64,000 nt of DNA. Origin: Nitrospirota bacterium (GTDB lineage: Bacteria > Nitrospirota > Thermodesulfovibrionia > Thermodesulfovibrionales > Dissulfurispiraceae). Shown piece by piece: positions 1,881 to 62,560 of the stretch (positions are counted from its first letter, which is position 1; the number at the start of each line of letters is the position of its first letter). A program made the position numbers and the translations under genes. Under the pieces are notes generated by a model that worked only from the letters and a program-made list of their open reading frames with translations, made no database searches and was not told the origin of the DNA. The stretch is from assembly GCA_004321915.1 (NCBI GenBank), contig SCQE01000041.1, positions 101,191-165,190 on the forward strand, given 5' to 3'.

Positions 1881-1994
1881 ACAACCTCCCTTGATATTAA
1901 ATTATATCATTTCAAAAAGCAGCTGTGATTTATCAGGAACCGACTCTAAAATGGTAATATATCATCACAGAAAATAAAGATCGGGGACATTACA

Positions 1995-5525: not shown

Positions 5526-5529
5526 AATA

Positions 5530-8097: not shown

Positions 8098-8377
8098 TTA
8101 TAGCCTCCTTTAGCATTTTCCCGGCCACCGCCTCCCCTTTTACGTTATAGGTGCCGGCCTTTATTTTGTCTTTCACTTCATCGACCTTGTCAGCCCGTAT
8201 ATCCGGTATTTTCTGCGCTTCCTGCTGAAGCCGGCCGATCTCTTTTCCCTTTTCCGAAACAGTTACCTGATCGTTTTTCTGGACTTCCTCTGTCTTCTCA
8301 AAGCCTCTTTCCCTTACCCGTGCTACGCTTTGCAGGCCTCCGATTGGAGCTGCTTCGATTTTGTCCGGTATCCGCAT
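8081..8377 (-). CDS. flgM: anti-sigma-28 factor FlgM
   Basis: 98 aa with the C-terminal motif IRADKVDEVKDKIKAGTYNVKGEAVAGKMLKE typical of FlgM. Position immediately upstream of flgN fits. Confidence 0.8.
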   Translation of the reverse strand: MRIPDKIEAAPIGGLQSVARVRERGFEKTEEVQKNDQVTVSEKGKEIGRLQQEAQKIPDIRADKVDEVKDKIKAGTYNVKGEAVAGKMLKEAIIDSIV

Positions 8378-8426
8378 TTTAAGTCCTCCTGATAAAGATT
8401 TTGCCGCGTAATGCAGCTTATCTTAA

Positions 8427-8453
8427 TTATCGGAGAACAATGCCTAATATTAA
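8427..8453 (-). promoter_or_regulatory. sigma-28 (FliA)-type promoter upstream of flgM
   Basis: The minus strand reads TTAATATT-N11-TCCGATAA against the consensus TAAAGTTT-N11-GCCGATAA. It lies about 50 nt upstream of the flgM ATG. Confidence 0.5.
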
Positions 8454-8791
8454 CCCCCGCTACCCATCGATGAGTACTGCTTCAACCCATAATCCCTATG
8501 TTTTAATTCGTTTTTTACACTTTCAGCGCCGGTACTTCTCATAAAGAAGCCGCCTACTCCTATCCCCTTTTCAGCCATAAATTTCGAAACTTCCGATGTT
8601 ATGAAAGGCATATAGTTGCCGACCACCTTATCTTTTCCAAAACTTGTCTGCTCCATCATCACCTTTACAAATTCGTTTATAAAGAGCGTTTCCGCGTCCT
8701 TGGATAGACTTTTGATGTCTTTCTTGGCAACATCCCCAAAGCCGGTCACTTTATGCAAAGCATCTTTGAGCGACGGTACGGGTTTCATCAC
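8450..8791 (-). CDS. flagellar rod-binding protein (FlgJ N-terminal domain only, no muramidase domain)
   Basis: 113 aa with ETLFINEFVKVMMEQTSF, like the FlgJ/CheL rod-binding domain. Lies directly after flgI. Confidence 0.65.
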   Translation of the reverse strand: MMKPVPSLKDALHKVTGFGDVAKKDIKSLSKDAETLFINEFVKVMMEQTSFGKDKVVGNYMPFITSEVSKFMAEKGIGVGGFFMRSTGAESVKNELKHRDYGLKQYSSMGSGG

Positions 8792-9996
8792 ATTATCACC
8801 AAATCTGCTTTAAGTCCGCCTGCAGCCTTAATGGCCTGAAGTATCGCAACCATATCTCTAGGAGTTACTCCAAGAGTGTTAAGCGCCTTTACGAGTTCGC
8901 CTATCGTCGCCCCTTTTACCTCCATTAACGCGGCTTTTTTCTCTTCGACAGTAACCTCTTTCTGCGCAGTGACGGCAGTCTGCGCAGCAGCAGGAGCAAG
9001 GGAAGACGGTTGCGAAACCTGATAATCGGTCCTTATAGATATAGTAAGCCCTCCGTGAGAAAGGGCCACCGGCGCAATACTCACATTTTCGCCTATTACA
9101 ACCGTGCCGGTCCTCTCGTTTATGACCACACGCGCAGGAACATCTATCGCAACATTAATAAGTTCTATGACCGACATCAATTCAACAACCCTTTCATTGA
9201 AGACGTCAGGCACTACAACGGATATAACGGCAGGCCCTTCCGGTTTTGCGTATGGCCCCCCGAGTTTTTCGTTTATCTTCTCCGAAATCCTCGCGGCTGT
9301 CGTTATATCTTGGACCATCAACATAAGGTCCAGTCTGTTTTTCCTGTTAAGCTGAACAGGGACCTCTTTTTCAACAAGCCCGCCATTGGGGATCATTCCA
9401 ACGTTCGGATGGTTTTTGGTAGCTTGGGCGCCTCCCCCGCCGCCCGAAAAACCTCCTATCGAAAGCGCCCCCTGCGCCACCGCGTAAACATTCCCGTCAA
9501 GGCCTTTTAACGGGGTCATAAGCAGAGTGCCGCCCTGCAGACTTTTCGAATCGCCGATAGAAGAGACCTGAACATCGACCCTAGAACCGGGCTTTATATT
9601 TGTCTGGAGTTTTGCCGTAACTATTACGGCGGCTATATTTTTAGTCTTTCCCTTAATATCCGCCTGACTGACATTGACGCCCATGCGGCTCAACATATTG
9701 GCGAACGGTTGATAGATATAAGTGCCGTCCTTGTCTCCAGTACCGTTAAGCCCTACCACTATTCCATATCCTATGAGTTCATTTTCCCTGATGCCGGAAA
9801 AATTTCCGATGTCCTTTATTCTTTCCCCGTAAACGGTACCTGAAAACGAGAGCAAGAGGACCGCTATGATTATAAAAGCATTAATAACATCCATTGCCGC
9901 TCTTCTTTCTTTTGTTAGTCCAATCATCTTTGTCCGCCTCGATTTCATTTTCATACAAGATTTAGTGCATCTTTCATGCCAAGTTAAAACGGCCAT
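8788..9996 (-). CDS. flgI: flagellar P-ring protein
   Basis: RIKDIGNFSGIRENELIGYGIVVGLNGTGD and the C-terminal LQAIKAAGGLKADLVIM. The real start is probably internal (the ATG at 9927 follows a GAGG) and would give a signal peptide. Confidence 0.9.
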   Translation of the reverse strand: MAVLTWHERCTKSCMKMKSRRTKMIGLTKERRAAMDVINAFIIIAVLLLSFSGTVYGERIKDIGNFSGIRENELIGYGIVVGLNGTGDKDGTYIYQPFANMLSRMGVNVSQADIKGKTKNIAAVIVTAKLQTNIKPGSRVDVQVSSIGDSKSLQGGTLLMTPLKGLDGNVYAVAQGALSIGGFSGGGGGAQATKNHPNVGMIPNGGLVEKEVPVQLNRKNRLDLMLMVQDITTAARISEKINEKLGGPYAKPEGPAVISVVVPDVFNERVVELMSVIELINVAIDVPARVVINERTGTVVIGENVSIAPVALSHGGLTISIRTDYQVSQPSSLAPAAAQTAVTAQKEVTVEEKKAALMEVKGATIGELVKALNTLGVTPRDMVAILQAIKAAGGLKADLVIM

Positions 9997-10748
9997 ATCT
10001 TATCCAGAAACCTTACGAGCCAACCGCTTGATTGTTTGTCATCCAGCACACCATCGCCCACAAGGTATATTTGAGCGTCAGCTACATACTGGGACTGAAC
10101 AGTGTTGGACGGAGACACATCGTCCGGCCTTACCATGCCTCTAAAAACAAGTATCTCCTTTTCGTTGTTTACAACGATTTCCTTGCGCGATTCAAGCACC
10201 ATGTTCGTATTCGGAAGCACCTCGACCACCTTGGCGGTTATAGTCCCTGAGAGCTTGCCTTCCCTTGTAGTGTCGCCTTTGCCCTTAAAGTCGGATTTAG
10301 CGCTGCCCTTTGCCGAGGGCGCGAAGGGGCGTCCGTGCCAAATATCAGGCACACCCAACTTCTGGTGCAGCTTTTTCTCCAATTCCAAATTTGCCAGCGT
10401 ACTCCCAAAAATATTGTCAAGAGCATACGTGCCCGAAGAATCCCTGTTTGCGCTTGTAGTGGCCTTTTTAGATGCCGTCGATGTCTCACTGATAATGATT
10501 GTTACAAGATCGTTTACGCGTTTGGCCTTCCTGTCCTCAAAAAGAGAAGCGCTATCTCTCCACAGAGACCCTTCCGAAGCGTATCTCTCCTTAGTTTCCT
10601 TCGGTTCTACATATTTCGGAGGCATAGGCGCGTCCTTTATTTCACGCGCCTCTTTAAGCCCCGCGCATCCTAAAAACATGAAAGAGATTCCTACCGATAG
10701 GCAAATTTTTCCCATTTTGACACATAAACATGTCCGGCTTTTGTTCAT
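9984..10748 (-). CDS. flgH: flagellar L-ring lipoprotein
   Basis: Lipobox FMFLGC and the FlgH core DLVTIIISETSTASKKATTSANRDSSG. ATGA overlap with the flgA stop. Confidence 0.9.
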   Translation of the reverse strand: MNKSRTCLCVKMGKICLSVGISFMFLGCAGLKEAREIKDAPMPPKYVEPKETKERYASEGSLWRDSASLFEDRKAKRVNDLVTIIISETSTASKKATTSANRDSSGTYALDNIFGSTLANLELEKKLHQKLGVPDIWHGRPFAPSAKGSAKSDFKGKGDTTREGKLSGTITAKVVEVLPNTNMVLESRKEIVVNNEKEILVFRGMVRPDDVSPSNTVQSQYVADAQIYLVGDGVLDDKQSSGWLVRFLDKIWPF

Positions 10749-11455
10749 ATTTTTACCCTTACCGTTCCGGCATCCACAAGCATGCCGTTTATTTCTTTTT
10801 TGTGAGATTCACAGTAAATAACAGCGTTGCCGCCTATAGCGGCATCCTTTCTAAGGACGCCTTTGGTTGTCAGCGTTATATTATTTCCTTCAACAACAAC
10901 ATCCACCCGCTGACCTTTTTTAATGGTCAATAAGCTTGTAACGTGATCGGTCTTCAAAACAACGCCCTGTCCCACATTCACTTTGAGGATCTTACCTTCG
11001 ATATCCGAACGCTGCAGAGCGGCCCCGTAAGGGACCTTTGACAATCTCTGCTTGAGAGAGAAAATGCCGTCAGGGGTCAAATACGAACCTTTTGTCAGCG
11101 CCCGGGCGCTGACAAAAACATCTACCATAAGATCATACGAGGCTTCGACAATTATCCCGTAACCAATGCCGGCCCCGTCCTTGACTTTAACATCGTAATT
11201 CACCTTGTTCCGGCCCGAATACCCGCTCATCCGAGCAGAAACAAGAGTCATATTGCTTTTAACGGAATCAGCCCCCCTGACAACCCTTATCCCGTTGACT
11301 TCAACATCCGGGGACAAGGAGCGAGAAAGGTCGTTTTGTATCATAGTCCTGACCTCGCTGAAGAGCTTGACATCTTCGCCTGTTTCACAAAACCCCTGAA
11401 ATGGGACCGTAGCAGCAATCATGCTCCAGAGCAAGCTTATTAAGGCCGTTCTCAT
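10745..11455 (-). CDS. flgA: flagellar P-ring assembly chaperone FlgA
   Basis: Signal peptide plus a C-terminal SAF-like region (IKKGQRVDVVVEGNNITLTTKGVLRKDAAIGGNAVI). Confidence 0.8.
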   Translation of the reverse strand: MRTALISLLWSMIAATVPFQGFCETGEDVKLFSEVRTMIQNDLSRSLSPDVEVNGIRVVRGADSVKSNMTLVSARMSGYSGRNKVNYDVKVKDGAGIGYGIIVEASYDLMVDVFVSARALTKGSYLTPDGIFSLKQRLSKVPYGAALQRSDIEGKILKVNVGQGVVLKTDHVTSLLTIKKGQRVDVVVEGNNITLTTKGVLRKDAAIGGNAVIYCESHKKEINGMLVDAGTVRVKI

Positions 11456-11460
11456 ATCAA

Positions 11461-12249
11461 TTATCTCCTCAGGTTGGCAGAGGTCTGGAGCATCTCATCA
11501 GAGGCCTGCACAGCCTTTGAATTAATGTCGAACGCCCTCTGGGCTATAATCAAATTTGCCATTTCCTCAACAACATTCACATTGGACATTTCAAGGAAAC
11601 CCTGATTCAAAGTGCCTCTCCCTTCAAGGCCCGGGGCCCCCGTTACCGCCTCTCCGGAAGCGTCGGAGGTAAGAAAAAGGTTCTTCCCTATCGACAAAAG
11701 CCCTGCGGGATTTGCAAATTTCGCTATCGTAATAGGGGTTAGAGCTGTCGGCGTGGAACTGCCCGCAACAAAGGCGCTCACCTCTCCTGAAGCGCTTATA
11801 GTTATCTTTGTAGTGGCAGGATCGAATGTTATGCCGTCGGTAAGCGGATATCCGTCGGAATTCACCATTCTTCCGTCCTTATCGAGCTTGAACGCGCCGG
11901 CCCTTGTGTATGCGGTAGTGCCGTCAGGCCGCGTAACCTGAAAAAAACCGTCCCCTTCTATCACCAGATCGAGATCGTTATTTGTGGTCATAAAATCGCC
12001 TTGCGAAAAAAGCTTCTGTACGGCTACAGGTTTTACACCCAATCCGACCTGTATCCCTGTAGGCACCTGCACGCCTTCACCCGACGCAGCTCCGGGCCCC
12101 TTCATGGTCTGGTACAACAAATCCTGAAAGTCGGCCCGGCTTCTTTTAAACCCTACGGTATTAACGTTCGCCAAGTTGTGGGCTATTACATCTACGTTTA
12201 TCTGCTGCGACTGCATCCCTGTTGCTGCTGTAAATAGAGACCTTATCAT
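11461..12249 (-). CDS. flgG: flagellar distal rod protein
   Basis: MIRSLFTAATGMQSQQINVDVIAHNLANVNTVGFKR. The start is moved to the ATG at 12249, which is preceded by AAGGAGGAG. Confidence 0.9.
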   Translation of the reverse strand: MIRSLFTAATGMQSQQINVDVIAHNLANVNTVGFKRSRADFQDLLYQTMKGPGAASGEGVQVPTGIQVGLGVKPVAVQKLFSQGDFMTTNNDLDLVIEGDGFFQVTRPDGTTAYTRAGAFKLDKDGRMVNSDGYPLTDGITFDPATTKITISASGEVSAFVAGSSTPTALTPITIAKFANPAGLLSIGKNLFLTSDASGEAVTGAPGLEGRGTLNQGFLEMSNVNVVEEMANLIIAQRAFDINSKAVQASDEMLQTSANLRR

Positions 12250-12265
12250 TCCAACTCCTCCTTCA

Positions 12266-12985
12266 TTATGCCCTTGCCAATTCGAAGGCCCTCTTTGAGA
12301 GGTCTTCAAAGTTCTGTATTATTTTTTGAGCGGATTCATACTGTCTAAGGGCCGTTATTACACCGACCATCTCCCTGACAGGGTTTACATTAGACATCTC
12401 GAGCGAACCCTGCACCACATCGGCGGCTGAGGCCCCTGCTTCACTTCCTGAATAAAGAGAATCGCCTTCGTGCATCAACTCTTTCAGCTTGACCACCTTG
12501 AACTTTCCGACGACCTCTCCGTTCAGGTTGATAGTTCCGTCTTGGGCTATACTCAAACTGCCGTTATTTTCGATAGTTATCGGTTTCCCGTTCGTGTCAA
12601 GGACTTTATACCCGTTCCCCGTCATCAAGGTATTGTCCTTGTCGAGCGTTAAGGCCCCGTTTCTCGAATAGAAATTCTGTCCTTTTTTCTGAACAACGAA
12701 AAAACCCTCCCCCATAAGCGCCAAATCCAGAGGGTTGCCGGTGGTCTTTATGTTTCCTTCCGATGTGTCTATATGATACTTATTGAAATCGGTCATCGCC
12801 CTTGCCTTGGGATAGGCGGCATCAGGCTTTAGGTCCACACCCTCGAGAATATCGTAAAAACGGGAGGATGTGGATGTCTTCTTGTATCCGACCGTGCTTA
12901 CATTGGCAAGATTGTTAGTTACGGACTCAAGTTCCCGGCTTCTTAGAACAGCGCTGCTCAAAGCCACATATATTCCCTTTTGCAT
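12266..12985 (-). CDS. flgF: flagellar proximal rod protein
   Basis: Rod-protein N- and C-terminal motifs (NNLANVSTVGYKK, MSNVNPVREMV). The start is moved to the ATG at 12985 because a sigma-54 promoter lies inside the longest ORF. Confidence 0.8.
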   Translation of the reverse strand: MQKGIYVALSSAVLRSRELESVTNNLANVSTVGYKKTSTSSRFYDILEGVDLKPDAAYPKARAMTDFNKYHIDTSEGNIKTTGNPLDLALMGEGFFVVQKKGQNFYSRNGALTLDKDNTLMTGNGYKVLDTNGKPITIENNGSLSIAQDGTINLNGEVVGKFKVVKLKELMHEGDSLYSGSEAGASAADVVQGSLEMSNVNPVREMVGVITALRQYESAQKIIQNFEDLSKRAFELARA

Positions 12986-13019
12986 CCAGCCCTCTTTCTT
13001 CAAGTATTTAAAGAAAGAA

Positions 13020-13035
13020 AGCAATATTGATGCCA
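13020..13035 (-). promoter_or_regulatory. sigma-54 promoter for flgF-flgG-flgA-flgH-flgI
   Basis: The minus strand reads TGGCATCAATATTGCT. GG and GC have the canonical -24/-12 spacing. It ends 34 nt before the flgF ATG and AAGAGGG ribosome-binding site. Confidence 0.65.
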
Positions 13036-13125
13036 ATTCTAATACGCTGTTTTTCTTATGTTTTTAGGGGTCATTCGCAAGTCGAAACGTCTGCAGGTAG
13101 GAATTGTTTTCCGTGCGCGGGAAAA

Positions 13126-13329
13126 TTATGCCTTGATATCTATACCTTGTTTTTCTTTTTTACCTTCGGAGGAAGATTTGTCTTCCTCTTTGGGCTTTGA
13201 AACCTCTCGCTCCCGGGTGACCTTCTTTGCCGGCTTGTTTAAACGCGAAAAAAGCGTTACATGACCCTGCCCTATCAAGGCAGAGCCTGCTATTCCTAAA
13301 ACATTGCCTATGCCGTCATATCCTGCCAT
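13126..13329 (-). CDS. hypothetical 67-aa protein (Gly-rich hydrophobic N-terminus, Lys/Glu-rich tail)
   Basis: ORF only, with no recognisable family. It sits 10 nt downstream of a sigma-28-like -10 element and has no Shine-Dalgarno sequence. Confidence 0.3.
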   Translation of the reverse strand: MAGYDGIGNVLGIAGSALIGQGHVTLFSRLNKPAKKVTREREVSKPKEEDKSSSEGKKEKQGIDIKA

Positions 13330-31689: not shown

Positions 31690-32766
31690 TTATCTCTTGA
31701 CCTTCTTGCCCTTCATCTTATAGACATTCGCAAGTATCGTGGCCACCGCCTTATAGAGCACTTCCGGGATCTCCTGCCCGATTTCGATCTTAAAAAGCGT
31801 GCGCGCCAGAGGCTTGTCTTCGAAGACCGGCACCTTGTGCTTTTTAGCGATCTCTTTTATTCTTTCGGCAACGAGATTTGCGCCCTTGGCGACCACCTTA
31901 GGCGCTACCATTTTCGATGTGTCATATTTAAGCGCCACCGCAAAATGGGTCGGGTTGGTTATGACCACGTCCGCCTTGGGCACCTCCTGCATCATCCTTT
32001 TCATCGCCATCTGTCTCTGAAGGCTCCTGATCCTCGCCTTTACCTTAGGGTCCCCCTCGGAAGACTTCATCTCGTCTTTAATGTCCATCTTCGTCATTTT
32101 GAGACTATCTTCGAACTGCCATCGCTGATAAAAAAAATCCACGATACCGAAAAAGCTAAGCACTACGGCCGAAATCAAAATGAGCTTATTTATCTGCCCG
32201 AAACAAATTCCTGCTATAGACAAGATGTCCATGTCTACAAGGAGCGGCAGTGTCAAAATCTCTTTTTTAAGTATGAAATAGAGTATAAGACTCAGGACGA
32301 TCATTTTTAAGAAACCCTTTGCGAGATCGAAGACCATGGTTTTGCTGAACATTCTTTTGATGAAATTCAAAGGATTAAGGTTGAGCAATCCTGCGTTTTC
32401 AAACTTCATTTTTGCGGTAGAGAAGTAAAAATCAGTTGAGTAAAGGTGTATGACAATAGACAGAACTATCATCCACCCGAAAAGAGGCAGCATAAGCTGT
32501 CCCAACTGAACAGCATCCGTTTTGAATATCTCCATCAGCGACGCATCGTTCAACGATGTCTCAAAGCTCCTCTTAAGAGAAGACTTAAAGAAGACGACCA
32601 TCGTATTGAAAAAAGCGATCCCGGTGAAAGAAAAAAAGGTAAACAGCACCCATAAAGGAACCAAGCTTATAAGCTCCCTGCTCGTTGCTATGTTCCCTTT
32701 GCCTCTGGCCTCGTCGCGCCGTCGCGGTGTCGCGGCTTCTGTGCGGCCTTCGTCTTCGGCACCCAT
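31690..32766 (-). CDS. flhB: flagellar export switch protein
   Basis: N-terminus EDEGRTEAATPRRRDEARGKGNIATSREL and the autocleavage motif NPTH (VITNPTHFAVAL). Confidence 0.95.
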   Translation of the reverse strand: MGAEDEGRTEAATPRRRDEARGKGNIATSRELISLVPLWVLFTFFSFTGIAFFNTMVVFFKSSLKRSFETSLNDASLMEIFKTDAVQLGQLMLPLFGWMIVLSIVIHLYSTDFYFSTAKMKFENAGLLNLNPLNFIKRMFSKTMVFDLAKGFLKMIVLSLILYFILKKEILTLPLLVDMDILSIAGICFGQINKLILISAVVLSFFGIVDFFYQRWQFEDSLKMTKMDIKDEMKSSEGDPKVKARIRSLQRQMAMKRMMQEVPKADVVITNPTHFAVALKYDTSKMVAPKVVAKGANLVAERIKEIAKKHKVPVFEDKPLARTLFKIEIGQEIPEVLYKAVATILANVYKMKGKKVKR

Positions 32767-32769
32767 CCG

Positions 32770-33507
32770 TTACCTCGTAAACAAAAAGATAGCTTCCTTC
32801 ATATTGAGGAAAGCCTTGGAAATGAGCATAAAAGTCAATGACAGTGACGCAATGATAAAAATAAACCCTATCGCAAGCAAAACAGGGAAACTGACAAAAA
32901 ATATGTTGGCCTGCGGCATCGCCTTAGACAAAAAACCCATCGCAACGTTAACAAGCATCTGAACAACTATTACGGGCGCGGCTATCTTGAATGCAAGAGG
33001 GAAGAGCAATGTATTAAGATTTATAATAGTCTGGAATATGGTTTTGTATTGGACCTGCTCGATTTCGAAACTTCTTACTATGCCCTCGATAAAATGATGG
33101 TGTATGTCGAGAGCGAAAAAAAAGACCATGGTCAGAAACATATAGAAAAAATTAAGCGGCCCCATAGTCTCGCCGAACTGTGGATTAAAAACAGCCGCCA
33201 GACCGAATCCCATCTGTAAACTTATCCATTGAGCAGCCATCTCTACAGCGCCAAATATGATCCTTACTGCAAGTCCCATCGCCATACCCACAAATATTGC
33301 GTCCAATATGGACCTGAACGGGTCTTCGGCATTAACTTTGGCAAAGGGCGCAACCAAAAGGCTAAAGGCCAAAACAAGACCCACCTTAAACATCATCGGG
33401 GTCGCCTTAGCGCCGAAAAAAGGGATGAACGAGAACATCGCAGCGATTCTTATGAATACCGGGATAAGTTTTCCTGAGTAGCTATTGACTATATTAAGAA
33501 GTTCCAT
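32770..33507 (-). CDS. fliR: flagellar export apparatus protein
   Basis: 245-aa polytopic membrane protein between fliQ and flhB. Confidence 0.85.
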   Translation of the reverse strand: MELLNIVNSYSGKLIPVFIRIAAMFSFIPFFGAKATPMMFKVGLVLAFSLLVAPFAKVNAEDPFRSILDAIFVGMAMGLAVRIIFGAVEMAAQWISLQMGFGLAAVFNPQFGETMGPLNFFYMFLTMVFFFALDIHHHFIEGIVRSFEIEQVQYKTIFQTIINLNTLLFPLAFKIAAPVIVVQMLVNVAMGFLSKAMPQANIFFVSFPVLLAIGFIFIIASLSLTFMLISKAFLNMKEAIFLFTR

Positions 33508-33512
33508 ATCAT

Positions 33513-33782
33513 CTATCTCACATAGAGCGGTATATTTTCAAAAATGTTTCTGGTAAACGAAACCATAATTTTGACCATCCACGGCAATGCGATCAAAAGC
33601 GTCAAAAAAACGGCGATTATCTTTGGCACGAATGTTATTGTAGCCTCCTGAAGCTGAGTCATGGCCTGAAAAAAGCTGATTAAAATACCTATAACAAGAC
33701 TGGCAACCAGAACCGGTCCGCCAACCATCAAAACCGTTTCGAACGTCTGCTTTGATATCTGTTGAAGGAGCTCGACCGTCAT
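33513..33782 (-). CDS. fliQ: flagellar export apparatus protein
   Basis: 89 aa with two TM segments and the conserved FQAMTQLQEATITFVPK. Confidence 0.9.
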   Translation of the reverse strand: MTVELLQQISKQTFETVLMVGGPVLVASLVIGILISFFQAMTQLQEATITFVPKIIAVFLTLLIALPWMVKIMVSFTRNIFENIPLYVR

Positions 33783-34822
33783 CTAAAACTCCCTATCAAA
33801 GAACCTATGATAAGCTCCCACCCGTCAGCCAATACAAACAAAAGAAGTTTCACGGGCAATGAGACCATAACAGGCGGGAGCATCATCATACCCATAGCAA
33901 GCAAAATACTGCCGACAACCATGTCAATAACGAGAAAAGGCAAATAGATAAGAAATCCTATCTCAAAAGCTTTCTGAAGTTCTCCGATAGCAAAAGCAGG
34001 GACAACAACCTTCATTGGTAAATCCATGGGGCTTGCAGGCCTTTCGCTCTTTGAAATCTTTAAGAAAAGCGCCAGATCCTTTTCCTTGGTCTGTCTAAGC
34101 ATAAATTCTTTTAGAGGCACACTCGCCTTGTTCAACGCAGTTTCAGCATCAATCTGTTTTTTAGTATATGGTAGATAAGCCTCTGAATATACACGGTCAA
34201 ATACTGGCGACATTATAAAAAAAGTGATGAAAAGCGCCAATCCTATCAAAACTGTATTAGGGGGGGCTTGAGGCGTGCCCATAGCCTGTTTTAGAAAGGA
34301 CAAAACAACTATTATTCTTGTAAAACATGTACACATAACCAACATTGCAGGCAAAATTGACAACAAAGTAAAAAAAAGTAATATCTCAAGCGGTGAATTA
34401 AGTCCGAGTATCCCCCCACCTACAGCAGGCGGTGCAGGTGCGCAAAAAGCGGTTTCGGAAAATAAAAGACCGCATAAAAACCAAAATGAAGAAAATATAA
34501 GTTTTCCTTTGTTTTTAAACAAATCTTTTATACTAAAACTCTGTACATTATTTTCTGTCATTACATTTAGTGATGCTTCTGCAACTTTGGGATTTAACTT
34601 ATCTATCAAGGAAACATTTTGATCGCCTATACCCAAAACAAAATACTCATCCAGAACTTTAACTATTCCTATGCCTCGTTTTGTTCCCAAGGGATAAAAA
34701 TATATTAAATCTATAAAACCTTTTTGTGGCATTACCCTTTGTTTTATCAGACGTAAGAACATATATAATCCGGCAAGTATAATTATCAGAACAAGCAGAA
34801 TTTTCAACACCTCAAAAGCCAA
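33779..34822 (-). CDS. fliP: FliO-like N-terminal module fused in frame to FliP
   Basis: Residues 1-85 have a TM segment plus LIYFYPLGTKRGIGIVKVLDEYFVLGIGDQNVSLIDKL (FliO pattern). A second hydrophobic, signal-like segment follows (FWFLCGLLFSETAFCA), then the FliP core (TRIIVVLSFLKQAMGTPQAPPN). Confidence 0.8.
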   Translation of the reverse strand: MAFEVLKILLVLIIILAGLYMFLRLIKQRVMPQKGFIDLIYFYPLGTKRGIGIVKVLDEYFVLGIGDQNVSLIDKLNPKVAEASLNVMTENNVQSFSIKDLFKNKGKLIFSSFWFLCGLLFSETAFCAPAPPAVGGGILGLNSPLEILLFFTLLSILPAMLVMCTCFTRIIVVLSFLKQAMGTPQAPPNTVLIGLALFITFFIMSPVFDRVYSEAYLPYTKKQIDAETALNKASVPLKEFMLRQTKEKDLALFLKISKSERPASPMDLPMKVVVPAFAIGELQKAFEIGFLIYLPFLVIDMVVGSILLAMGMMMLPPVMVSLPVKLLLFVLADGWELIIGSLIGSFR

Positions 34823-34849
34823 GTTTATTCCTCCGTTATGCTTAATATG

Positions 34850-35179
34850 CTACTTTAACGATCTCACCCTTTCTGTGGGGCTGATTATATCCGTTACCCT
34901 TATACCGAACTTTTCATTTACAACAACAACTTCGCCTCTTCCGACAAGTCTGTCATTTACATATACCTCCATCGGTTCGCCGGCAAGTTTCTCAAGCGCT
35001 ATTACCGACCCCTGCCCCAATTGCAATAGTTCCTGAATAAGTATCTTTGTCCTTCCTATCACAACTGTAAGTTCAAGCGGTACATCAAGAATAAAATTAA
35101 CATCTCTTTGTTGTACCCTCTGCATTTGGTCTTCCGAGCCAAACTCCTCCATGTTTAAATCCTTAACATCTTCTGACAT
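34850..35179 (-). CDS. fliN: flagellar motor switch protein
   Basis: 109 aa with a SpoA-type C-terminus (LDVPLELTVVIGRTKILIQELLQLGQGSVIALEKLAGEP). Confidence 0.9.
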   Translation of the reverse strand: MSEDVKDLNMEEFGSEDQMQRVQQRDVNFILDVPLELTVVIGRTKILIQELLQLGQGSVIALEKLAGEPMEVYVNDRLVGRGEVVVVNEKFGIRVTDIISPTERVRSLK

Positions 35180-35201
35180 TTTGCCTCCTAACCAATTGTT
35201 T

Positions 35202-36164
35202 CTAAATGATTTGAGTTATTTTTAATGCGTATGATCCCTTAAAAATACCAAATTTCCCCTGAAACTTAGGTACACCTTCTATATCTATATCTATATCTTC
35301 ATCTACCCTTTTATTGAGCATTATGATATCCGAGGTCTGCATGTTTAAAATATCTTCAACCGAAACCACGGCACTACCAAGAGTTGCGGTAAAATTCAAA
35401 GGGATCTCTTTTAATCTTTCACGTAATCGTTCAATCCATTTCTGGTCCATCTCATCCCTGTCGGCAGAAAAAGCGCTATAAAGTTTCTCTTTAATCGGTT
35501 CAACCGTTCCATAAGGGATACATAAAAATATCCTGCACTGTTTGCCTTCGATTTCAAGGATAAATTCAACTTTAATAACAACGTCTACAGGCGTTACTAT
35601 TGTTACAAACTGAGGATTCATTTCAGATCTTACATAGTTAGGCATAACAGGATAAATAGGTTTCCAAGCCTCTTCCATGTCACTAAAAAACATCATTACA
35701 ACTTTATGTATGATTTTTTGTTCAATTGGTGTAAATTCACGGCCCTCAGGCTTATAATGTCCCTTTCCAGTACCACCGAAGAAAAATTCGATAAGCGTAA
35801 AAATCATCGGGGCATCAAAAACCAAAAGCCCGAATCCCCTTAAAGGTTCCATCTTGAACACATTGATACTTGAGGGAAAAGGTATTCCCCTCATAAAATC
35901 GTAAAATTTAGTTATATTTACATTAACATTCGTAACATCAACCATATGCCTTATTGCAGCGGAAAGCGATAGACGAAAATTTCTCGCAAGTCTCTCATTG
36001 GCAATATCAAGAGACGGCATTCTGCCACGAACAATCTTCTCCTGACCGCTAAAATCATAGAGTTTTACACCCGAAACTTCCTCTACTTTTTCGGTTTCTA
36101 CATCTCCGTCAGATATACCTTTAAGTAGCGCATCGACTTCATCCTGCGATAGGATATCTTCCAT
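35202..36164 (-). CDS. fliM: flagellar motor switch protein
   Basis: The N-terminal CheY-P binding motif LSQDEVDALL and the FliM middle domain. Confidence 0.9.
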   Translation of the reverse strand: MEDILSQDEVDALLKGISDGDVETEKVEEVSGVKLYDFSGQEKIVRGRMPSLDIANERLARNFRLSLSAAIRHMVDVTNVNVNITKFYDFMRGIPFPSSINVFKMEPLRGFGLLVFDAPMIFTLIEFFFGGTGKGHYKPEGREFTPIEQKIIHKVVMMFFSDMEEAWKPIYPVMPNYVRSEMNPQFVTIVTPVDVVIKVEFILEIEGKQCRIFLCIPYGTVEPIKEKLYSAFSADRDEMDQKWIERLRERLKEIPLNFTATLGSAVVSVEDILNMQTSDIIMLNKRVDEDIDIDIEGVPKFQGKFGIFKGSYALKITQII

Positions 36165-36209
36165 TATCTCCTCTTAAAACAATAAGTTAAACATCTACAT
36201 ATAAAGTTT

Positions 36210-36713
36210 TTATTGCATTACAAATTCTGTCAGATAGACATTCTTAACAGCATTTTCTCCTAATATCTGGTTTGTCCTGACAGATATCTCATCCTTAAGC
36301 TGCAACTTTCCTTCAGGGGATACCAATGTCTCAGCCGATTTACTAGTGAGCAAAGTGATAATAGCGTCCCTCAACTGAGGATTTTTCAGCTTTGTTTTTT
36401 CAGCAGTTTGCGGTCCTGCATTGGCAAGCTCAAGTTGAAGTGTAACTTTAAGGAATTTATTTCCGCCCTGATCGCTTAGATTTACAACAAAAGGATCTAT
36501 AGGGTACATAACTACTTCTTCAGCTTTTTTATCGGCCTCTTTTTTGGCATCTTTCCCCTCGCCGCCACCTGATTTTTTCAGAAAAAAGAAAGCCCCGCCC
36601 CCGCCCGCAACCAACAAAACTACGGCTATAATAATTATTATTAAAAGTTTTCCTTTTTTCTTAGGCGCCGCTTCGACCGGAACTTCGCCTTCTTTAGGTT
36701 CTTCATCAGCCAT
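36210..36713 (-). CDS. fliL: flagellar basal-body-associated protein
   Basis: One TM segment, then YPIDPFVVNLSDQGGNKFLKVTLQLEL. Confidence 0.85.
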   Translation of the reverse strand: MADEEPKEGEVPVEAAPKKKGKLLIIIIIAVVLLVAGGGGAFFFLKKSGGGEGKDAKKEADKKAEEVVMYPIDPFVVNLSDQGGNKFLKVTLQLELANAGPQTAEKTKLKNPQLRDAIITLLTSKSAETLVSPEGKLQLKDEISVRTNQILGENAVKNVYLTEFVMQ

Positions 36714-36762
36714 AATGTCCCCTCCATATGCTTAAAATTATACAAATTGCCATTTAATTGTT

Positions 36763-36778
36763 TGCACATAATATGCCA
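36763..36778 (-). promoter_or_regulatory. sigma-54 promoter for the fliL operon
   Basis: The minus strand reads TGGCATATTATGTGCA with canonical GG/GC spacing, ending 49 nt before the fliL ATG. Confidence 0.6.
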
Positions 36779-36840
36779 AACAATAACTGATTGATTTTAA
36801 TATGGTTTATTAGAAAAAGGAAGGAGTATAGTCAATACAA

Positions 36841-36877
36841 TGACGGTTGGATGCTTAAAGAGAGCATCCAACCGTCA
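36841..36877 (-). terminator. stem-loop downstream of flgE (probable intrinsic terminator or RNA stabiliser)
   Basis: Perfect 15-bp inverted repeat TGACGGTTGGATGCT / AGCATCCAACCGTCA with a 7-nt loop, 27 nt after the flgE stop. On the minus strand it is followed by TTGTATTG. Confidence 0.55.
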
Positions 36878-36904
36878 CCTAAGCAAACAAAGACAGGCTA
36901 AAAA

Positions 36905-38251
36905 TTATCTGACTATATTGGTAACCTCTGCAAGCATATTGTCCGATGTCGTGATGACCCTTGCATTTGCCTGAAAGCCTCTCTGCGCAGCAATCATTCT
37001 GACAAATTCCTCGGCAATATCGACATTGCTCAATTCGACCGTGTTAGGGAGAATACCGCCTCTGCCCGAGGTATTGGGCGTACCTATAACAGCCTGTCCT
37101 GAATCGAACGACTGTGCATATAAACTCTTGCCCATTTTAGTGAGCCCTTCAGGAGAAACGAACCTAGAAAGAGCAACCTGAGCGATATTTTTGACCTGAC
37201 CGTTGGTAAAGACACCGCCTATAACGCCATTGCTGCTTATGGTCAAAGCCCTGAGAGAACCGGCAGTCCACCCGTTCTGGTTCTGGAATACCATGGTAGA
37301 AGGAGAGCCGTATTGGGTCGTGTTTATGCCGTTATAGCCCATGCTGATAGCGATAGTTTGAGTTGCGGCCCCACCCACCCAAGAGGTAAAATCAAAAACA
37401 GCATTCTTTGCAGCAGGGGCTGTAGGCGCTGCAATACCCGGAGGCGCAGTATCGACTATATCAACACCGGTCAGAGTGCCGCTCGAATCGAACGTAAGCG
37501 TAAGCGGTTGTGTGCCTGCAGTGCCCCCGTCAAAATCGATTTCCACATAGTTGGTACTTGTAGCGCTGTTGTTATAGACAAAATGGGCATCCCATGTGTT
37601 TGAAGCAGTCTTCCTGTAGTATATGCTCACAGGATGGTCATTGCCCTGACTATCATATACGGTCATGGTCGTATTAAAATTATAACAACCTGAAACCGGC
37701 CCTGATGCGGCAACCAGAGACCATGCCGTTGCCTTAATACTTTCCCTCGAATCTAGGTTAGCTTCAAGATTCACTTGGCTCGATGCGCTCGGATTACTGT
37801 TGACCGTAGCTACGTTGACGTCCCCCAACGAGCCTGTAAAGTTACCGTTTGCATCGTACAGATAGCCTTGGTATCTCAGACCTGTCGGGGACACTATGTA
37901 TCCGTCCTTATCGAGACCCGACTGACCGCTTCTTGTATAAAAGGTACCACCGGTAGGTTCCTTGACAACAAAGAACCCCTCGCCGTCAACAGCCATATCC
38001 AGCGGATTGTTAGAGGTCTCGAAGTTGCCCTGCGTAAACAAGGCCTGCGTTCTCAGCATACTTGCGCCTCTTCCTATCTGAACGGCTGAACTTCCTCCCA
38101 AGGCCTGACTTAATACGTCGCCGAAAATAGACCTACTGCCCTTAAAGCCCACAGTATTTGAGTTGGCAATATTGTCGCCGACTATGGACAAGGCCTGACC
38201 ATTAGTGTTTAATCCGCTGACTCCGGTAAATAATGATGTCAAGATACTCAT
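36905..38251 (-). CDS. flgE: flagellar hook protein
   Basis: MSILTSLFTGVSGLNTNGQALSIVGDNIANSNTVGFKGSR and the C-terminus LSNVDIAEEFVRMIAAQRGFQANARVI. Confidence 0.95.
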   Translation of the reverse strand: MSILTSLFTGVSGLNTNGQALSIVGDNIANSNTVGFKGSRSIFGDVLSQALGGSSAVQIGRGASMLRTQALFTQGNFETSNNPLDMAVDGEGFFVVKEPTGGTFYTRSGQSGLDKDGYIVSPTGLRYQGYLYDANGNFTGSLGDVNVATVNSNPSASSQVNLEANLDSRESIKATAWSLVAASGPVSGCYNFNTTMTVYDSQGNDHPVSIYYRKTASNTWDAHFVYNNSATSTNYVEIDFDGGTAGTQPLTLTFDSSGTLTGVDIVDTAPPGIAAPTAPAAKNAVFDFTSWVGGAATQTIAISMGYNGINTTQYGSPSTMVFQNQNGWTAGSLRALTISSNGVIGGVFTNGQVKNIAQVALSRFVSPEGLTKMGKSLYAQSFDSGQAVIGTPNTSGRGGILPNTVELSNVDIAEEFVRMIAAQRGFQANARVITTSDNMLAEVTNIVR

Positions 38252-58995: not shown

Positions 58996-59067
<72 letters not shown>

Positions 59068-59172
59068 TTCTTGAAAACCAACCCTAAAAGGCATTTACAC
59101 AAAAAAATTTAGACCTTCACATTTGTTTTTCCGTTTATACGATCATTTCTATTTTTTGAATTTAACGTTTGA

Positions 59173-59243
59173 GGTAACCGGCCGCCGGAGCGCGAAGCGC
59201 GGAGGGAACCCGCAAGCGCAGCTTGCGGGCGGTCCGGTTGACC
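59173..59243. other. GC-rich segment with nested hairpins (possible structured RNA or protein-binding site)
   Basis: Perfect 9-bp hairpin CCCGCAAGC-GCA-GCTTGCGGG (59209-59229). GCGC-GAA-GCGC hairpin (59190-59200). Outer pairing AACCGG (59176-59181) with CCGGTT (59234-59239). Confidence 0.35.
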
Positions 59244-59283
59244 GAAGGGTTAGGCGGCGGGGTGATGTGCGTTTTCAACAAAA

Positions 59284-60015
59284 TTACTCACTGTGTAATG
59301 CTATGAATATGTCAGAGCCGGCCTGCGGAGTTTCGACATTTATGCCAGCTATGGCACCCTCGACTGAATCCTCCAACTTCGCGACAAACGGCCTCATAAG
59401 TTCCCACACATCGGATATGCATACTCGGTATTCGCCTGCAGCTAAGTGAACCAACGATGTCGGTCTTACCACTGCTTGGCCAACCGGGTTTACAAGCTCC
59501 ATCTTCTTGAAGGGATACATGGTGCCGGGGCGAAGGACACAGGTTAGATGTTGAAAGGAAATGTCGTCAACAAACGTGATCCATGTGAGAACCCCAAGAG
59601 CGGTTGACTCCTTTGCGACTACGTAATCGATCCGTTGGGCTAGATGGTCAGCTACATTTCGCAGTTGTCGGACTTCCTGAGATAGCTTGATGAAGCTTTC
59701 CACCCTCTCGTCACTCATGAATTCATCAGCGACGTTTGGCATTTGCTGTATGAGAGTGCGTACTCGATCTGTTGCATCGACGAATGCCCAGGCGTCGAGG
59801 AATGCGGAAGTGTAGTGTCTAGCAAAGTGTGCCTTGGTGTTGCCGTCCGCATTCCCTGTGATGTGACCTCTAGCCATTTCTGTCAGGGCCGTGACAAGGC
59901 GGTTATAGGCTAGGTCCGCTATTTCAACCGCATGCCGTATGCCGTCGATGAATACCACTTGACGTCGATTGCGCAAAGCGGGGAGGCGTCGCAGTATGGA
60001 ATTCTCCGATATCAC
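59284..60015 (-). CDS. orphan 243-aa protein with an RNxxxH (HEPN-like) motif
   Basis: Clean ORF with no family recognised. The helical N-terminal half contains VRQLRNVADHLAQRI, which matches the HEPN Rx4-6H signature. Confidence 0.4.
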   Translation of the reverse strand: MISENSILRRLPALRNRRQVVFIDGIRHAVEIADLAYNRLVTALTEMARGHITGNADGNTKAHFARHYTSAFLDAWAFVDATDRVRTLIQQMPNVADEFMSDERVESFIKLSQEVRQLRNVADHLAQRIDYVVAKESTALGVLTWITFVDDISFQHLTCVLRPGTMYPFKKMELVNPVGQAVVRPTSLVHLAAGEYRVCISDVWELMRPFVAKLEDSVEGAIAGINVETPQAGSDIFIALHSE

Positions 60016-60344
60016 AGTGGCTCCTTTGGGGGCGATTGAGCCGCCTAACTACTTATTAGATAGTTTCTCGCTATCACCGGAATATTTCATATTCACAATC
60101 TTCCATAAATATTGCCATCCGCATAACTGCTTGATTTGCTGTGTTATCAAGTCTGTCTAATATTACTTTTGTGATGTTATCGAGTTTTCTGTCTAACAAC
60201 GCTTCCCCTAAGCAGTTTTGTTATACCCTGTCAGAGGTCTCCCCGTCAATAGGCAAGCTGAACTGAAAAGATGTTGATTCCAGCTCATAACCCCGCTGTA
60301 TTTTGATATACTAAAAATAACGAAATAGGGATTGAGGTGATAGC

Positions 60345-60500
60345 ATGGAATCGGCGGCATCGAAAGAATTGCAGGATATTTTTTCGGTATTACCCCAAAA
60401 GGCAAAGGTCGAAGCTATAGACTATGTTATTGCCGTTGATCTAAATATGCCCGTGCTGACAATATTTCCAGGTCGAATAGCAGACCATTTAAATCGATAA
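60345..60500 (+). CDS. 51-aa ORF with a strong ribosome-binding site; possible relic of a small antitoxin-like gene
   Basis: GAGGTGA lies 4 nt before the ATG. KELQDIFSVLPQKAKVEAIDYV resembles the N-terminus of DUF2281-type antitoxins. Its 3-prime part overlaps the PIN gene in antisense. Confidence 0.25.
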   Translation: MESAASKELQDIFSVLPQKAKVEAIDYVIAVDLNMPVLTIFPGRIADHLNR

Positions 60501-60813
60501 GATCATTATCGCCTGTTATCAGAAGCCCTGCTTTTGCTTCAAGACAGCATTCAAGAACCATATTGTCTTTAGGATCACGACAAACTATTAAATTTCTGCG
60601 CGGGAATACAATCTTAGCCTTAGACACAACAGCAGCAATGCCTGTAATTAATGCCTCTAACTGAATATGAGTGATTTTGCCTTTTGCCACAAGCTCTAAA
60701 GGGACATTGCGATATTCGCTTAGAAGGGTTGGAGAAACATAAATATCTGCTTCTGTAAAAGCTTTTTTGACGGCCTTTGCCGGGATACCACCAAAAGCAA
60801 AAGCAGAAATCAA
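60427..60813 (-). CDS. PIN-domain toxin (VapC-like); the annotated TTG start truncates the conserved N-terminus
   Basis: ISAFAFGGIP...LITGDNDL is a PIN-family pattern. The in-frame sequence just upstream encodes KIVLDTGIL, which carries the catalytic Asp but has no ATG, GTG or TTG before it. Confidence 0.65.
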   Translation of the reverse strand: MISAFAFGGIPAKAVKKAFTEADIYVSPTLLSEYRNVPLELVAKGKITHIQLEALITGIAAVVSKAKIVFPRRNLIVCRDPKDNMVLECCLEAKAGLLITGDNDLIDLNGLLFDLEILSARAYLDQRQ

Positions 60814-60835
60814 AATACCTGTATCAAGAACTATT

Positions 60836-61033
60836 TTATCTCTTTTTCTCGTAAGCCTTTCTCCTTACAGCTTTTACTGCATTGTCAACATCCTTCATGG
60901 TTAATTTTGTGGTTTTGAATGCCTCCTTTGCCACCTTAAAAGCTGCATCAAGCCGCTCTTCAGGAGAAAGGACCGAAAGGATATAATCTTCAGGGTTAAT
61001 TTTTTTTGCAGTGGCAACGCTCATATAAAACAC
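60836..61033 (-). CDS. small antitoxin-like protein upstream of the PIN gene
   Basis: 65 aa with a basic C-terminus. Position is typical for the antitoxin of a type II pair. GAGGAGGTG lies upstream of the ATG. Confidence 0.5.
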   Translation of the reverse strand: MFYMSVATAKKINPEDYILSVLSPEERLDAAFKVAKEAFKTTKLTMKDVDNAVKAVRRKAYEKKR

Positions 61034-61272
61034 CTCCTCAATTTTTTTCTCTCAATCACAAATCAAGACCTGTTACATATCATTGTATCACATTCAGTAA
61101 GCGATGAAGCTTGCATATTTAGAATAATCGCCTCATTGTTTATTTCAATTCGACTGTAGCAAATTTTGTAGCAGAAAATTGCAGAACATATCGAATCACC
61201 AATTTCCTGTTAAATAAGTATGTTACTGATACTCAACTAAAAAGCCAACTCGTTCTGAAGCGCTTCCAAATT

Positions 61273-61307
61273 GCTGAAGGTCGCGGGTTCGAATCCCGTC
61301 GCCCGCT
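61273..61307 (+). repeat. right copy of the 35-nt tRNA-Gly 3-prime repeat; putative attR
   Basis: Identical to 59033-59067. No matching 5-prime tRNA half lies upstream. Confidence 0.85.
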
Positions 61308-61384
61308 CTTAAGACAACGACAAAAAACCGAGGTTCCTTCTCCAATATTGACATAGATGTAAAAATACTTTACACTTTTACATC

Positions 61385-62560
61385 ATGATAACAAGAGCGT
61401 TAAAGCTGCCGACAAATAGATCATTCTTCCTGTTCGGCCCCAGACAGACCGGCAAAACCACCCTTATCAACAGTGTCTTCAAGGACAGGGTCTTTAAAGT
61501 CAATCTACTGCTGAGTGACCAGTACTTCAAATATTCAAAAGACCCCTCGCTGCTGAGAAAAGAGGTCATGGAGAAGACGAAAAGCATTAACTATGTCTTT
61601 ATAGATGAGATCCAGAGGGTCCCTGAACTGCTCAATGAAGCGCAACATCTTATAGACAGCACATCGCTGTATTTCATCATGTCCGGTTCGAGCGCACGAA
61701 AACTTAAACGCGGTTATGCCAACCTCCTCGGAGGGCGGGCCGTGCAGCGGTTTCTTTTTCCTTTTATGTGGAGTGAGGTTTCAGAAAAAGCTAGGCTTAT
61801 GGATTTTCTAAGGTTCGGGGCACTGCCGCCTGTTTTCTTTGCTAAGAATGAAACCGACAAGATAGACCTCCTTAAGGCATATGTGGATATTTATCTGCGT
61901 GAAGAGATACAGGCAGAGGGTATTGTCAGAAAAATAGGCGCATTCTCAAGGTTTCTTGATATGGCGGCGAGCCAGTTCGGAGAGATTGTAAACTATTCGA
62001 CCATAGCGCGCGAATGCCAGCAGGCTGTCATGACGGTCAAGACATATTATGAGATTCTTGTTGACACTCTGATAGGTTTTCGTCTGGAGCCGTGGAGGAA
62101 GAGCATGAAGAAGCGGCTTGCCGGACATCCCAAGTTCTACCTGTTCGACAATGGCGTTACGAATATCATCAACCAGTATGACCATGCCATATCCGACCCC
62201 TATCTTCTCGGCAGGTTGTTTGAGCAATTCATCATCATAGAAACCATGAAATCAATAAAGACATCACAAAAAATGACCAATCTGTATTACTGGCGTACAA
62301 ACACCGGTGCGGAGGTGGACCTCCTAGTGGAACAGTCGGGAAAACTCACCGGAGCTTATGAGATTAAATGGTCGAAGACTGTTACCACAGCACAGATTAC
62401 CGGATTAAAGTCTTTTCAACAGGACCATCCCGGGGTGCCGTGTTACGTGATTTGCAATGCCGATGAATCCTATAGGCTCGGGAATGTGCTTGTGATGAAC
62501 TGGAAGAAGTTCCTGCTTGAGACAGGGAAAAAACACCCACGGCGGTCGGAAAACCGCTGA
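61385..62560 (+). CDS. AAA-family ATPase with a DUF4143-type C-terminal domain
   Basis: FLFGPRQTGKTTLI Walker A, FIDEIQ Walker B and the C-terminal pattern YYWRTNTGAEVDLL. Confidence 0.75.
   Translation: MITRALKLPTNRSFFLFGPRQTGKTTLINSVFKDRVFKVNLLLSDQYFKYSKDPSLLRKEVMEKTKSINYVFIDEIQRVPELLNEAQHLIDSTSLYFIMSGSSARKLKRGYANLLGGRAVQRFLFPFMWSEVSEKARLMDFLRFGALPPVFFAKNETDKIDLLKAYVDIYLREEIQAEGIVRKIGAFSRFLDMAASQFGEIVNYSTIARECQQAVMTVKTYYEILVDTLIGFRLEPWRKSMKKRLAGHPKFYLFDNGVTNIINQYDHAISDPYLLGRLFEQFIIIETMKSIKTSQKMTNLYYWRTNTGAEVDLLVEQSGKLTGAYEIKWSKTVTTAQITGLKSFQQDHPGVPCYVICNADESYRLGNVLVMNWKKFLLETGKKHPRRSENR

Follow-up and report, generated by a model that had tools for sequence, protein, structure and literature searches.

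To our knowledge, most integron cassettes beyond the clinical resistance genes have no known function, and a sizeable fraction of integron cassettes are miniature anti-phage systems. Integron cassettes were reported to be rich in compact single-gene anti-phage systems, HEPN ones included, and the Vibrio cassettes AbiV, Taranis (AbiJ-like) and Esos ('HEPN-like domain only') caused growth arrest or death on infection (10.1101/2024.07.02.601686). An 'Integron cassette HEPN' family of gammaproteobacteria, represented by PDB entry 3jrt, was also described, and a role as a ribonuclease (RNase) of stress or dormancy was proposed for it (PMC3710099). Here we analyzed a gene for a 243-residue protein with an RNxxxH motif in a 64,000-nt stretch of a Nitrospirota genome (assembly GCA_004321915.1, contig SCQE01000041.1, positions 101,191 to 165,190), hereafter the window, in whose numbering the coordinates of this locus are given. 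The results showed that the gene is the sole cargo of an integron-type cassette and belongs to a large family in which the motif is almost invariant; as judged from sequence and structural models, the protein most likely represents a new, unannotated branch of the HEPN superfamily.

An attC covariance model (R2) was built without the window, on 26 attCs that belong to seven other genomes, and run at full sensitivity on both strands of the 64 kb. It gave one significant attC match in the whole window (39 bits, E = 9.2e-9), located directly downstream of the gene (Table 1), and the same site was recognized by another model, R1 (E = 0.0019). Folded as single-stranded DNA, the site reached -22.8 kcal/mol with a z-score of about -3. 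It opens at the R'' box GCCTAAC (59255-59249), 28 nt past the stop codon, and closes at GTTAAAT (59166-59160), where the covariance model places R'; a manual pairing of GCCTAAC with GTTACCT as R' was rejected. On the other side of the gene, GTTAGGC (60049-60043) complements GCCTAAC. A G/TTRRRY boundary that complements its own R'' box (RYYYAAC) is the hallmark of a linearized cassette. The G+C content (GC) changes abruptly at the two predicted junctions: across 59166 it rises from 0.23 to 0.70, and across 60048 it falls from 0.55 to 0.32. That of the cassette is 0.535 versus 0.28-0.39 in the surrounding islet. The 5' leader of the cassette comprises 33 nt and holds the Shine-Dalgarno sequence, and no promoter-like site was found on the minus strand from 60050 to 60426. 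The element thus displays an attC directly 3' of a single open reading frame (ORF) on the same strand, a complementary boundary, a short promoterless leader and a GC discontinuity. No second attC was found in the window, upstream of the 5' boundary included, nor was any tyrosine-recombinase box II motif. Having no intI/attI and no array of at least two attCs, the window contains neither a complete integron nor a cluster of attC sites lacking integron integrases (CALIN). Since the window holds no second attC, no R'/R'' pair around the neighboring PIN/VapB-like toxin-antitoxin genes and no tyrosine recombinase, the element was read as a solo cassette at a simple GTT site. A search for an RNA antitoxin or tandem repeats adjoining the gene found nothing, nor did Rfam yield one, and the predicted empty site was sought in metagenomes and not found, which is uninformative.

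To place the cassette among its relatives, we compared 30 non-redundant loci of the family from Nitrospirae, Thermodesulfobacteriota, Gamma- and Betaproteobacteria, Acidobacteriota, Verrucomicrobiales, Chlorobiaceae and Smithella. An attC abuts the family gene in 14 of them and in 17 of 80 loci of an independent metagenome sample, and these fractions are lower bounds because the attC model is narrow. In the metagenome loci, upstream sites end 9-26 nt before the start codon, and downstream sites on the strand of the gene start between -6 and +28 nt relative to the stop codon. R'/R'' pairs flank the gene in 6 of 29 loci, compared with 0.62 expected from shuffles and 11 of 262 control genes. Several family attCs have the R'' box GCCTAAC in common, pointing to joint inheritance of gene and attC. 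The clearest array was that of a Verrucomicrobiales metagenome-assembled genome (MAG; L015, JARGOD010000100.1, 1-13220), where 17 attCs of about 125 nt each lie on the strand of the gene within 13 kb, and the family gene (8001-8735) sits between two of them. There, in 11 of 11 consecutive pairs, an element opens with a heptamer (RYYYAAC) that is the exact reverse complement of the heptamer (GTTRRRY) closing the element before it, and compensatory changes were present in 12 of 15 stem pairs. The same rule of complementarity between 5' boundary and R'' also holds in L060 and L106. A Methylobacter MAG (L030, JAUYMY010000047.1) carries at 5204-6175 (-) the C-terminal half of an integron integrase (TIGR02249, positions 165-313, E = 2e-51), oriented divergently from the array. 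The GC of the family gene is about 0.41-0.56 even in hosts at 0.61-0.68 (L001, L017, L025, L026 and L028), and in L001, L017, L026 and L028, where no attC is detectable, the low-GC patch is exactly gene-sized; therefore the gene moves as a single-gene unit. No recurrent neighbor or partner gene was found in the 30 loci. Taken together, the unit of gene plus attC circulates among at least six bacterial phyla.

Several further observations were made at these loci. The four gene-sized insertions may be cassette-derived with the attC lost, or may have arrived by another route. All cassette ORFs of L015 are without annotation, and no intI lies within the fetched 1-13220 stretch. In L030, the upstream part of the integrase is split into other frames, reflecting either a decaying platform or an assembly error. 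Downstream of the gene of Methylobacter sp. G7 (L002, CP159583.1, 8754-8776), the R'' box GCCTAAC is followed after 7 nt by GTTAGAT, which resembles an attC with its center deleted; the upstream GTTAGGC boundary is intact, and this may be a fossilized cassette. A Polaromonas MAG (L011) has three repeat copies around the gene (7096-7432, 9189-9521 and 10418-10580) of 95-184 nt with 72-81% identity, which the attC models do not recognize. Longer 'fusion' forms of the protein contain no Pfam domains and look like gene-call extensions.

The GenBank entry for the identical protein (EPN22_07625, labelled 'MAG: Nitrospirae bacterium') has 224 residues and is 19 codons (59959-60015) shorter than our ORF. 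Because the N-terminus is conserved in homologues and a perfect Shine-Dalgarno sequence precedes the GTG at 60015, the GenBank call is truncated. The first 19 residues are kept in the alignment (M1, S6, L8, R9, P12 and Q19), so the 243-residue ORF proposed in the initial annotation, a model's reading of the sequence without database searches, is real and corrects the start codon of the GenBank protein. That annotation had also called the protein an orphan, which proved wrong. A word-indexed search returned 174 relatives of about 240-250 residues with 37-52% identity, all unnamed, and a deep profile search returned 1,451 representatives of 50%-identity clusters at E<=1e-3, 315 of them at E<=1e-30. 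Its statement that the protein fits no family was borne out, as the single protein had no threshold match in Pfam, NCBIfam, PADLOC or PDB sequences; library searches with 55 and 100 family members and with the family consensus likewise brought no match to threshold. A sub-threshold match to DUF7168 in Pfam (E = 7e-4) came from 1 of 55 members only and was taken as chance, and the score of an MS2 coat match was inflated by a tandem-duplicate chain.

The motif noticed near residue 120 was found in the peptide VRQLRNVADHLAQRI, which carries R119, N120 and H124. Conservation of its Arg and His in homologues, which the initial annotation had proposed as a check, is far beyond chance: across 256 aligned family sequences, R119 is Arg in 255/255 and H124 is His in 255/256. 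Position 120 is N in 239, H in 10, D in 5 and R in 1 of 255 sequences, and D80 is Asp in 247/255. Position 84 is R in 249 sequences and K in 6, and W76 is Trp in 254/255. When the 100 most divergent members are aligned (mean column identity 24%), every column except R119 and H124 varies.

To view the motif in its structural context, AlphaFold2 models were examined. The model built from the family alignment (predicted local distance difference test, pLDDT, 89.7; predicted template-modelling score, pTM, 0.90) has long helices at 17-53 (helix 1), 58-91 (helix 2) and 103-123 (helix 3), a C-terminal helix at 200-223, short helices at 96-100 within a variable loop and at 129-134 beyond the motif, and strands at 142-150, 155-161, 186-193 and 196-199. 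Helix 2 contains D74, W76 and D80-x3-R84, the insert 92-102 that separates helices 2 and 3 varies among the aligned sequences and contains gaps, and the conserved residues of the beta region include G141, W145 and the loop P163-G164-T165. A second model, of a Smithella homologue with 38% identity (pLDDT 91.4), has the same layout, with a helix at 100-115 and the motif at R111..H116. An all-helical N-terminal half had been anticipated, and both models agree with it. The motif had been placed at the start of the last helix; both models instead show it where the third long helix ends, which is the position of a HEPN motif. Mean-field direct coupling analysis (DCA) was performed on 245 near-complete sequences (effective number, Meff, 211). 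The strongest coupling was D83-R116 between helices 2 and 3, and D83-N120 and D80-H124 were also found; therefore the helix-2 acids lie against the motif. Helices 1 and 2 are coupled antiparallel (A43-A71, I26-V85, R39-D74 and F22-Q91), and the couplings set the C-terminal helix parallel to helix 1 (V30-V211 and I26-M207) and antiparallel to helix 2 (V85-F210, T82-V203 and F72-E215). The sheet is coupled to the upper half of helix 1 (T45-T186, A48-T186 and V41-V189), and the P163 loop gave the couplings D123-P163 and H28-P163. Strands were thus present within 142-199, in line with the C-terminal part having been called beta-rich; it had also been called unrelated, whereas its helix 200-223 coevolves with helices 1 and 2. 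This part is more aptly taken as a beta insertion that comes behind the motif and precedes a helix returning to the bundle.

HEPN domains are defined as four-helix up-down bundles of two alpha-hairpins with about 100-120 residues, with an Rx4-6H signature at the end of helix 3, in which the polar residue following R is 'mostly N, D or H' (PMC3710099). The insert between helices 2 and 3 is poorly conserved, helix 2 supplies a second conserved acid, typically in Ex3[KR], beside the motif, and a beta-hairpin directly after the motif of Csx1 is a precedent for a beta insertion (PMC3710099). The family shows an Rx4H motif with a polar residue after R, at the end of helix 3 in both models. A helix-2 acid lies near the motif in D80-x3-R/K84, with Asp instead of Glu, and residues 92-102 form a variable insert. 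As for the bundle, three long helices are joined by the distal helix 200-223, which coevolves with helices 1 and 2 in a noisy DCA. Sub-threshold Pfam matches in divergent members comprised DUF4145 twice (E 0.042), HEPN_Cthe2314 (E 0.11) and Abi_2 (E 0.13), and the latter two, both on L026, stop exactly on the motif RNVSAH. These matches stand among about 45 scattered one-off matches, and the recurrence of HEPN-clan families is an enrichment, not proof. In Foldseek searches of the PDB, HepT (6m6u/6m6w) ranked second for the first model (E 0.93, probability 0.41, TM-score 0.46), and it was the best match of the Smithella model by probability, TM-score and root-mean-square deviation (rmsd), again sub-threshold. 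Matches to other helical bundles were likewise below threshold. Matches to manganese superoxide dismutase and to a megabody had rmsd values of 14-20 Å and were meaningless, and a search of BFVD with one model gave nothing significant.

The family was compared with known systems, among them stand-alone HEPN effectors. AbiD/AbiF (Abi_2), HEPN_Cthe2314 and DUF4145 proteins also carry R-[NHD]-x3-H where helix 3 ends, together with one acidic and one basic residue in helix 2 and a variable insert between helices 2 and 3, and they are likewise encoded by genes without an antitoxin. Unlike them, the present family has a beta module of about 60 residues after the motif and a distal helix that seems to close the bundle, and its matches to them remain at E 0.04-0.13. 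HepT (DUF86, PF01934) shares the RNxxxH type of motif and aligns at TM-scores of 0.39-0.46 over 113-123 columns, but the family protein is twice its size, has no MNT partner gene and matches it at a Foldseek E value of about 1. The 3jrt family resembles ours in being a HEPN-motif protein carried as a single integron cassette; 3jrt was neither retrieved by the family profile (PDB sequences, E<=10) nor present among the top 50 fold matches, and, in contrast to that gammaproteobacterial family, the present one spans at least six phyla. AbiV, Taranis and Esos are similarly compact, single-gene and HEPN-type. They differ from the present family in being Vibrio cassettes with experimental phenotypes, and the Pfam searches with family members gave no match to Abi_C or AbiV. 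Csx1/Csm6 differ from the family, which lacks a CARF domain, does not occur in a CRISPR context and resembles these proteins detectably in neither sequence nor fold.

The cassette lies in an islet of about 2.24 kb (58996-61318; GC about 0.38 without the cassette), which also contains a PIN/VapB-like pair. Both the tRNA-flanked island and the adjacent PIN toxin-antitoxin pair of the initial annotation were found as described. A defence context had been read from them; tRNA and PIN pair are there, but neither recurs in the loci of the family, with tRNA adjacency in 1/29 other loci only and no PIN or antitoxin neighbor in any of the other 29 clustered loci, and the integron cassette is the real context. 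Because no integrase is present, the islet looks like a decayed tRNA-targeting integrative element that received the cassette later. The PIN/VapB pair was considered as a second cassette and rejected, as no attC and no R'/R'' pair surrounds these genes. Between the PIN gene and the cassette boundary, a 41-residue ORF (60074-60199) without a Pfam match contains an imperfect direct repeat, TTAGACAGA(AAA)CT(C/T)GATAACA (60110-60200, minus strand). Just outside the islet lies an AAA_14/DUF4143 ATPase gene (61385-62560, plus strand; PADLOC candidate PDC-S01, E = 2e-63), and another DUF4143/PDC-S01 gene neighbors a family member in one other locus. A low-GC stretch elsewhere in the window (31690-38251, minus strand; 0.37-0.39 at 34-37 kb) is a flagellar export/hook operon (FlhB, FliR, FliO/P, FliM, FliL and FlgE), not an island.

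Table 1. Features of the cassette, its gene and the surrounding islet in the window, and loci of the family with an abutting attC.
Feature	Position	Strand	Basis
attC site, 96 nt: R'' GCCTAAC ... paired arms ... CCTCAAAC-GTTAAAT R'	59160..59255	-	covariance models, single-stranded DNA fold
Cassette 5' boundary G/TTAGGC, exact reverse complement of the attC R'' box	60043..60049	-	sequence match
Integron gene cassette, 883 bp (TTAGGC...ORF...attC...G), GC 0.535	59166..60048	-	attC, boundary, GC
ORF of the family member, 243 residues, GTG start, TAA stop	59284..60015	-	large family without annotation
Shine-Dalgarno AAGGAG, 5 nt ahead of GTG	60021..60026	-	read from sequence
Codons R119-N120-V-A-D123-H124, Rx4H HEPN-type motif, end of helix 3	59644..59661	-	alignment, AlphaFold2
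Residues 1-135, helical part with motif	59611..60015	-	AlphaFold2 models, alignment, DCA
Residues 136-199, four-stranded beta region after the motif	59419..59610	-	AlphaFold2, alignment, DCA
Residues 200-223, C-terminal helix with conserved E215, candidate bundle-closing 'helix 4'	59347..59418	-	AlphaFold2, DCA
tRNA-Gly(CCC), left end of AT-rich islet	58996..59067	+	context
Direct repeat of tRNA-Gly 3' end, first 35 nt identical, right end of islet	61273..61318	+	repeat
PIN toxin and small VapB-like antitoxin, outside the cassette	60427..60813 and 60836..61033	-	GC 0.39-0.40
attC abutting the gene, 14/30 genome loci: window, L007, L008, L009, L013, L014, L015, L021, L025, L027, L030, L031, L032, L033			
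attC abutting the gene, 17/80 metagenome loci (independent sample); 21/22 matches on the gene's strand			

As a whole, these data are best explained by an HEPN-type RNase that is spread by cassettes and acts as a self-regulated toxic effector, to which we assign a probability of about 0.55. The cassette would have been inserted by attC x GTT recombination into the small AT-rich tRNA-Gly islet. By analogy with characterized HEPN enzymes, the protein would cleave RNA independently of metal, with H124 as the general base and R119/N120 holding the phosphate, so as to leave 2',3'-cyclic phosphate ends, and its active site would probably be formed across a homodimer. A classical toxin-antitoxin arrangement is excluded because a second gene would not fit into the cassette and there is no conserved partner; since no antitoxin travels with the gene, the protein would have to restrain itself. 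The beta module is likely the regulatory or sensor part that keeps it off, until a trigger such as phage infection or stress would activate it and bring about growth arrest, in the manner of an abortive-infection or dormancy-type effector.

A number of results weigh against this explanation. No Pfam HEPN model matched a family member at threshold, the family profile retrieved nothing from all PDB sequences at E<=10, and PADLOC 2.0 models gave 0 families at E<=1 with the 243-residue protein. Neither model had a Foldseek match to the PDB at E<0.001, all values being at least 0.28. Against 46 real PF01934 HepT proteins, hhalign gave a probability of 1.9% and left the RNxxxH motifs unaligned; the HepT/DUF86 alignment was started from a manually entered seed consensus, and only real PF01934-labelled matches were kept. 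The conserved polar residues D24, R27, D74, W76, E215 and D235 exceed a minimal HEPN site, the canonical position of helix 4 right after the motif holds a 6-residue helix only, and the DCA is noisy at a Meff of about 211, with the helix 200-223 coupling more to helices 1 and 2 than to helix 3. As for spread and role, neither 50,697 phage genomes nor IMG/VR contain the family, plasmid carriage amounts to one megaplasmid, the nearest neighbors are mostly housekeeping genes, and in more than half of the loci the attC searches gave no match. HEPN families are mutually undetectable by sequence outside their motifs (PMC3710099), and because this is often so, the absent significant match lowers the claim without excluding HEPN. 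The HEPN call of the initial annotation gained from the invariance and position of the motif and its coupling to helix 2. Of the checks it had named, the profile searches yielded only sub-threshold Pfam matches and the poor HepT/DUF86 alignment, and the structure prediction yielded three long helices with the motif ending the third, and no significant fold match. We consider HEPN-type chemistry of the family protein fairly probable; the HEPN reading is strengthened and plausible, though unproven, and has outlived every test able to refute it.

If the protein is not HEPN, it may have a new alpha+beta fold in which the Arg/His pair forms another site with D24, R27, D74, W76, D80, E215 and D235, for example for a nucleotide or phosphate ligand, and the likeness to RNxxxH is convergent. 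We regard this as unlikely, although it is favored by the lack of a significant fold or profile match to any HEPN family, the want of a proper helix 4 after the motif, the many extra conserved polar residues, and a pTM of 0.90, which fits one compact alpha+beta unit better than a bundle with an appendage. On the other side, N/H/D at position 120, a motif at the end of a long helix and the coupled helix-2 acid are specific HEPN traits, every family-labelled weak match that stops on the motif is to a HEPN family, the best fold match is repeatedly HepT, and HEPN families are known to escape detection from each other's sequences. A fuller form of this idea, in which such a fold with a convergent Arg-Asn-x3-His center and a trigger-sensing beta module represents a new class of self-contained integron effector, appears quite unlikely. 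The RNase may, alternatively, be of HEPN type and play no part in phage defence, and instead act in stress-induced dormancy or stabilize cassettes as an addictive element. Such roles were proposed for integron HEPN proteins by Anantharaman et al. (PMC3710099), and the absence of the family from phages and PADLOC and its many loci among housekeeping genes are in line with them. However, classical addiction needs an antidote and none is conserved, tested HEPN-like cassettes gave anti-phage phenotypes (10.1101/2024.07.02.601686), and a minority of neighbors are restriction-modification, CcdB, FRG/PDC-S15 or DUF4143/PDC-S01 genes; we hold this alternative to be decidedly improbable. Over all loci, the minority of nearest neighbors other than housekeeping genes comprised IS66, CcdB, DUF4411, methyltransferases, type IIG restriction-modification, FRG/PDC-S15 and DUF4143/PDC-S01. 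The gene also lies on the same strand as the PIN gene, 410 nt downstream of it with no terminator-like site between, and both are inside the tRNA-Gly repeats, which would suit a third component of the PIN/VapB module or ordinary tRNA-Gly island cargo, the reading implied by the context argument of the initial annotation. This is contradicted by the data and has hardly any likelihood left: the other clustered loci have no such neighbors, the GC of 0.535 versus 0.38-0.40 changes in sharp steps at the cassette junctions, and the gene owns an attC, whereas the toxin-antitoxin genes have neither an attC nor an R'/R'' pair around them.

What had been taken for a tRNA island gene is thus a solo integron cassette that came to lie within a tRNA islet, and it belongs to a large cassette family without any annotation, which extends from Nitrospirae to Verrucomicrobia, Acidobacteria and Proteobacteria. 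The gene is a good, though unproven, candidate for a compact toxin or anti-phage gene, and the analysis provides a two-residue catalytic hypothesis (R119 and H124) that is testable by two point mutants. If the HEPN-type reading is true, the family would represent a new branch of HEPN proteins, into which an unusual beta module is inserted, and a single-protein RNase without an antitoxin, whose mechanism of self-control would be worth knowing.

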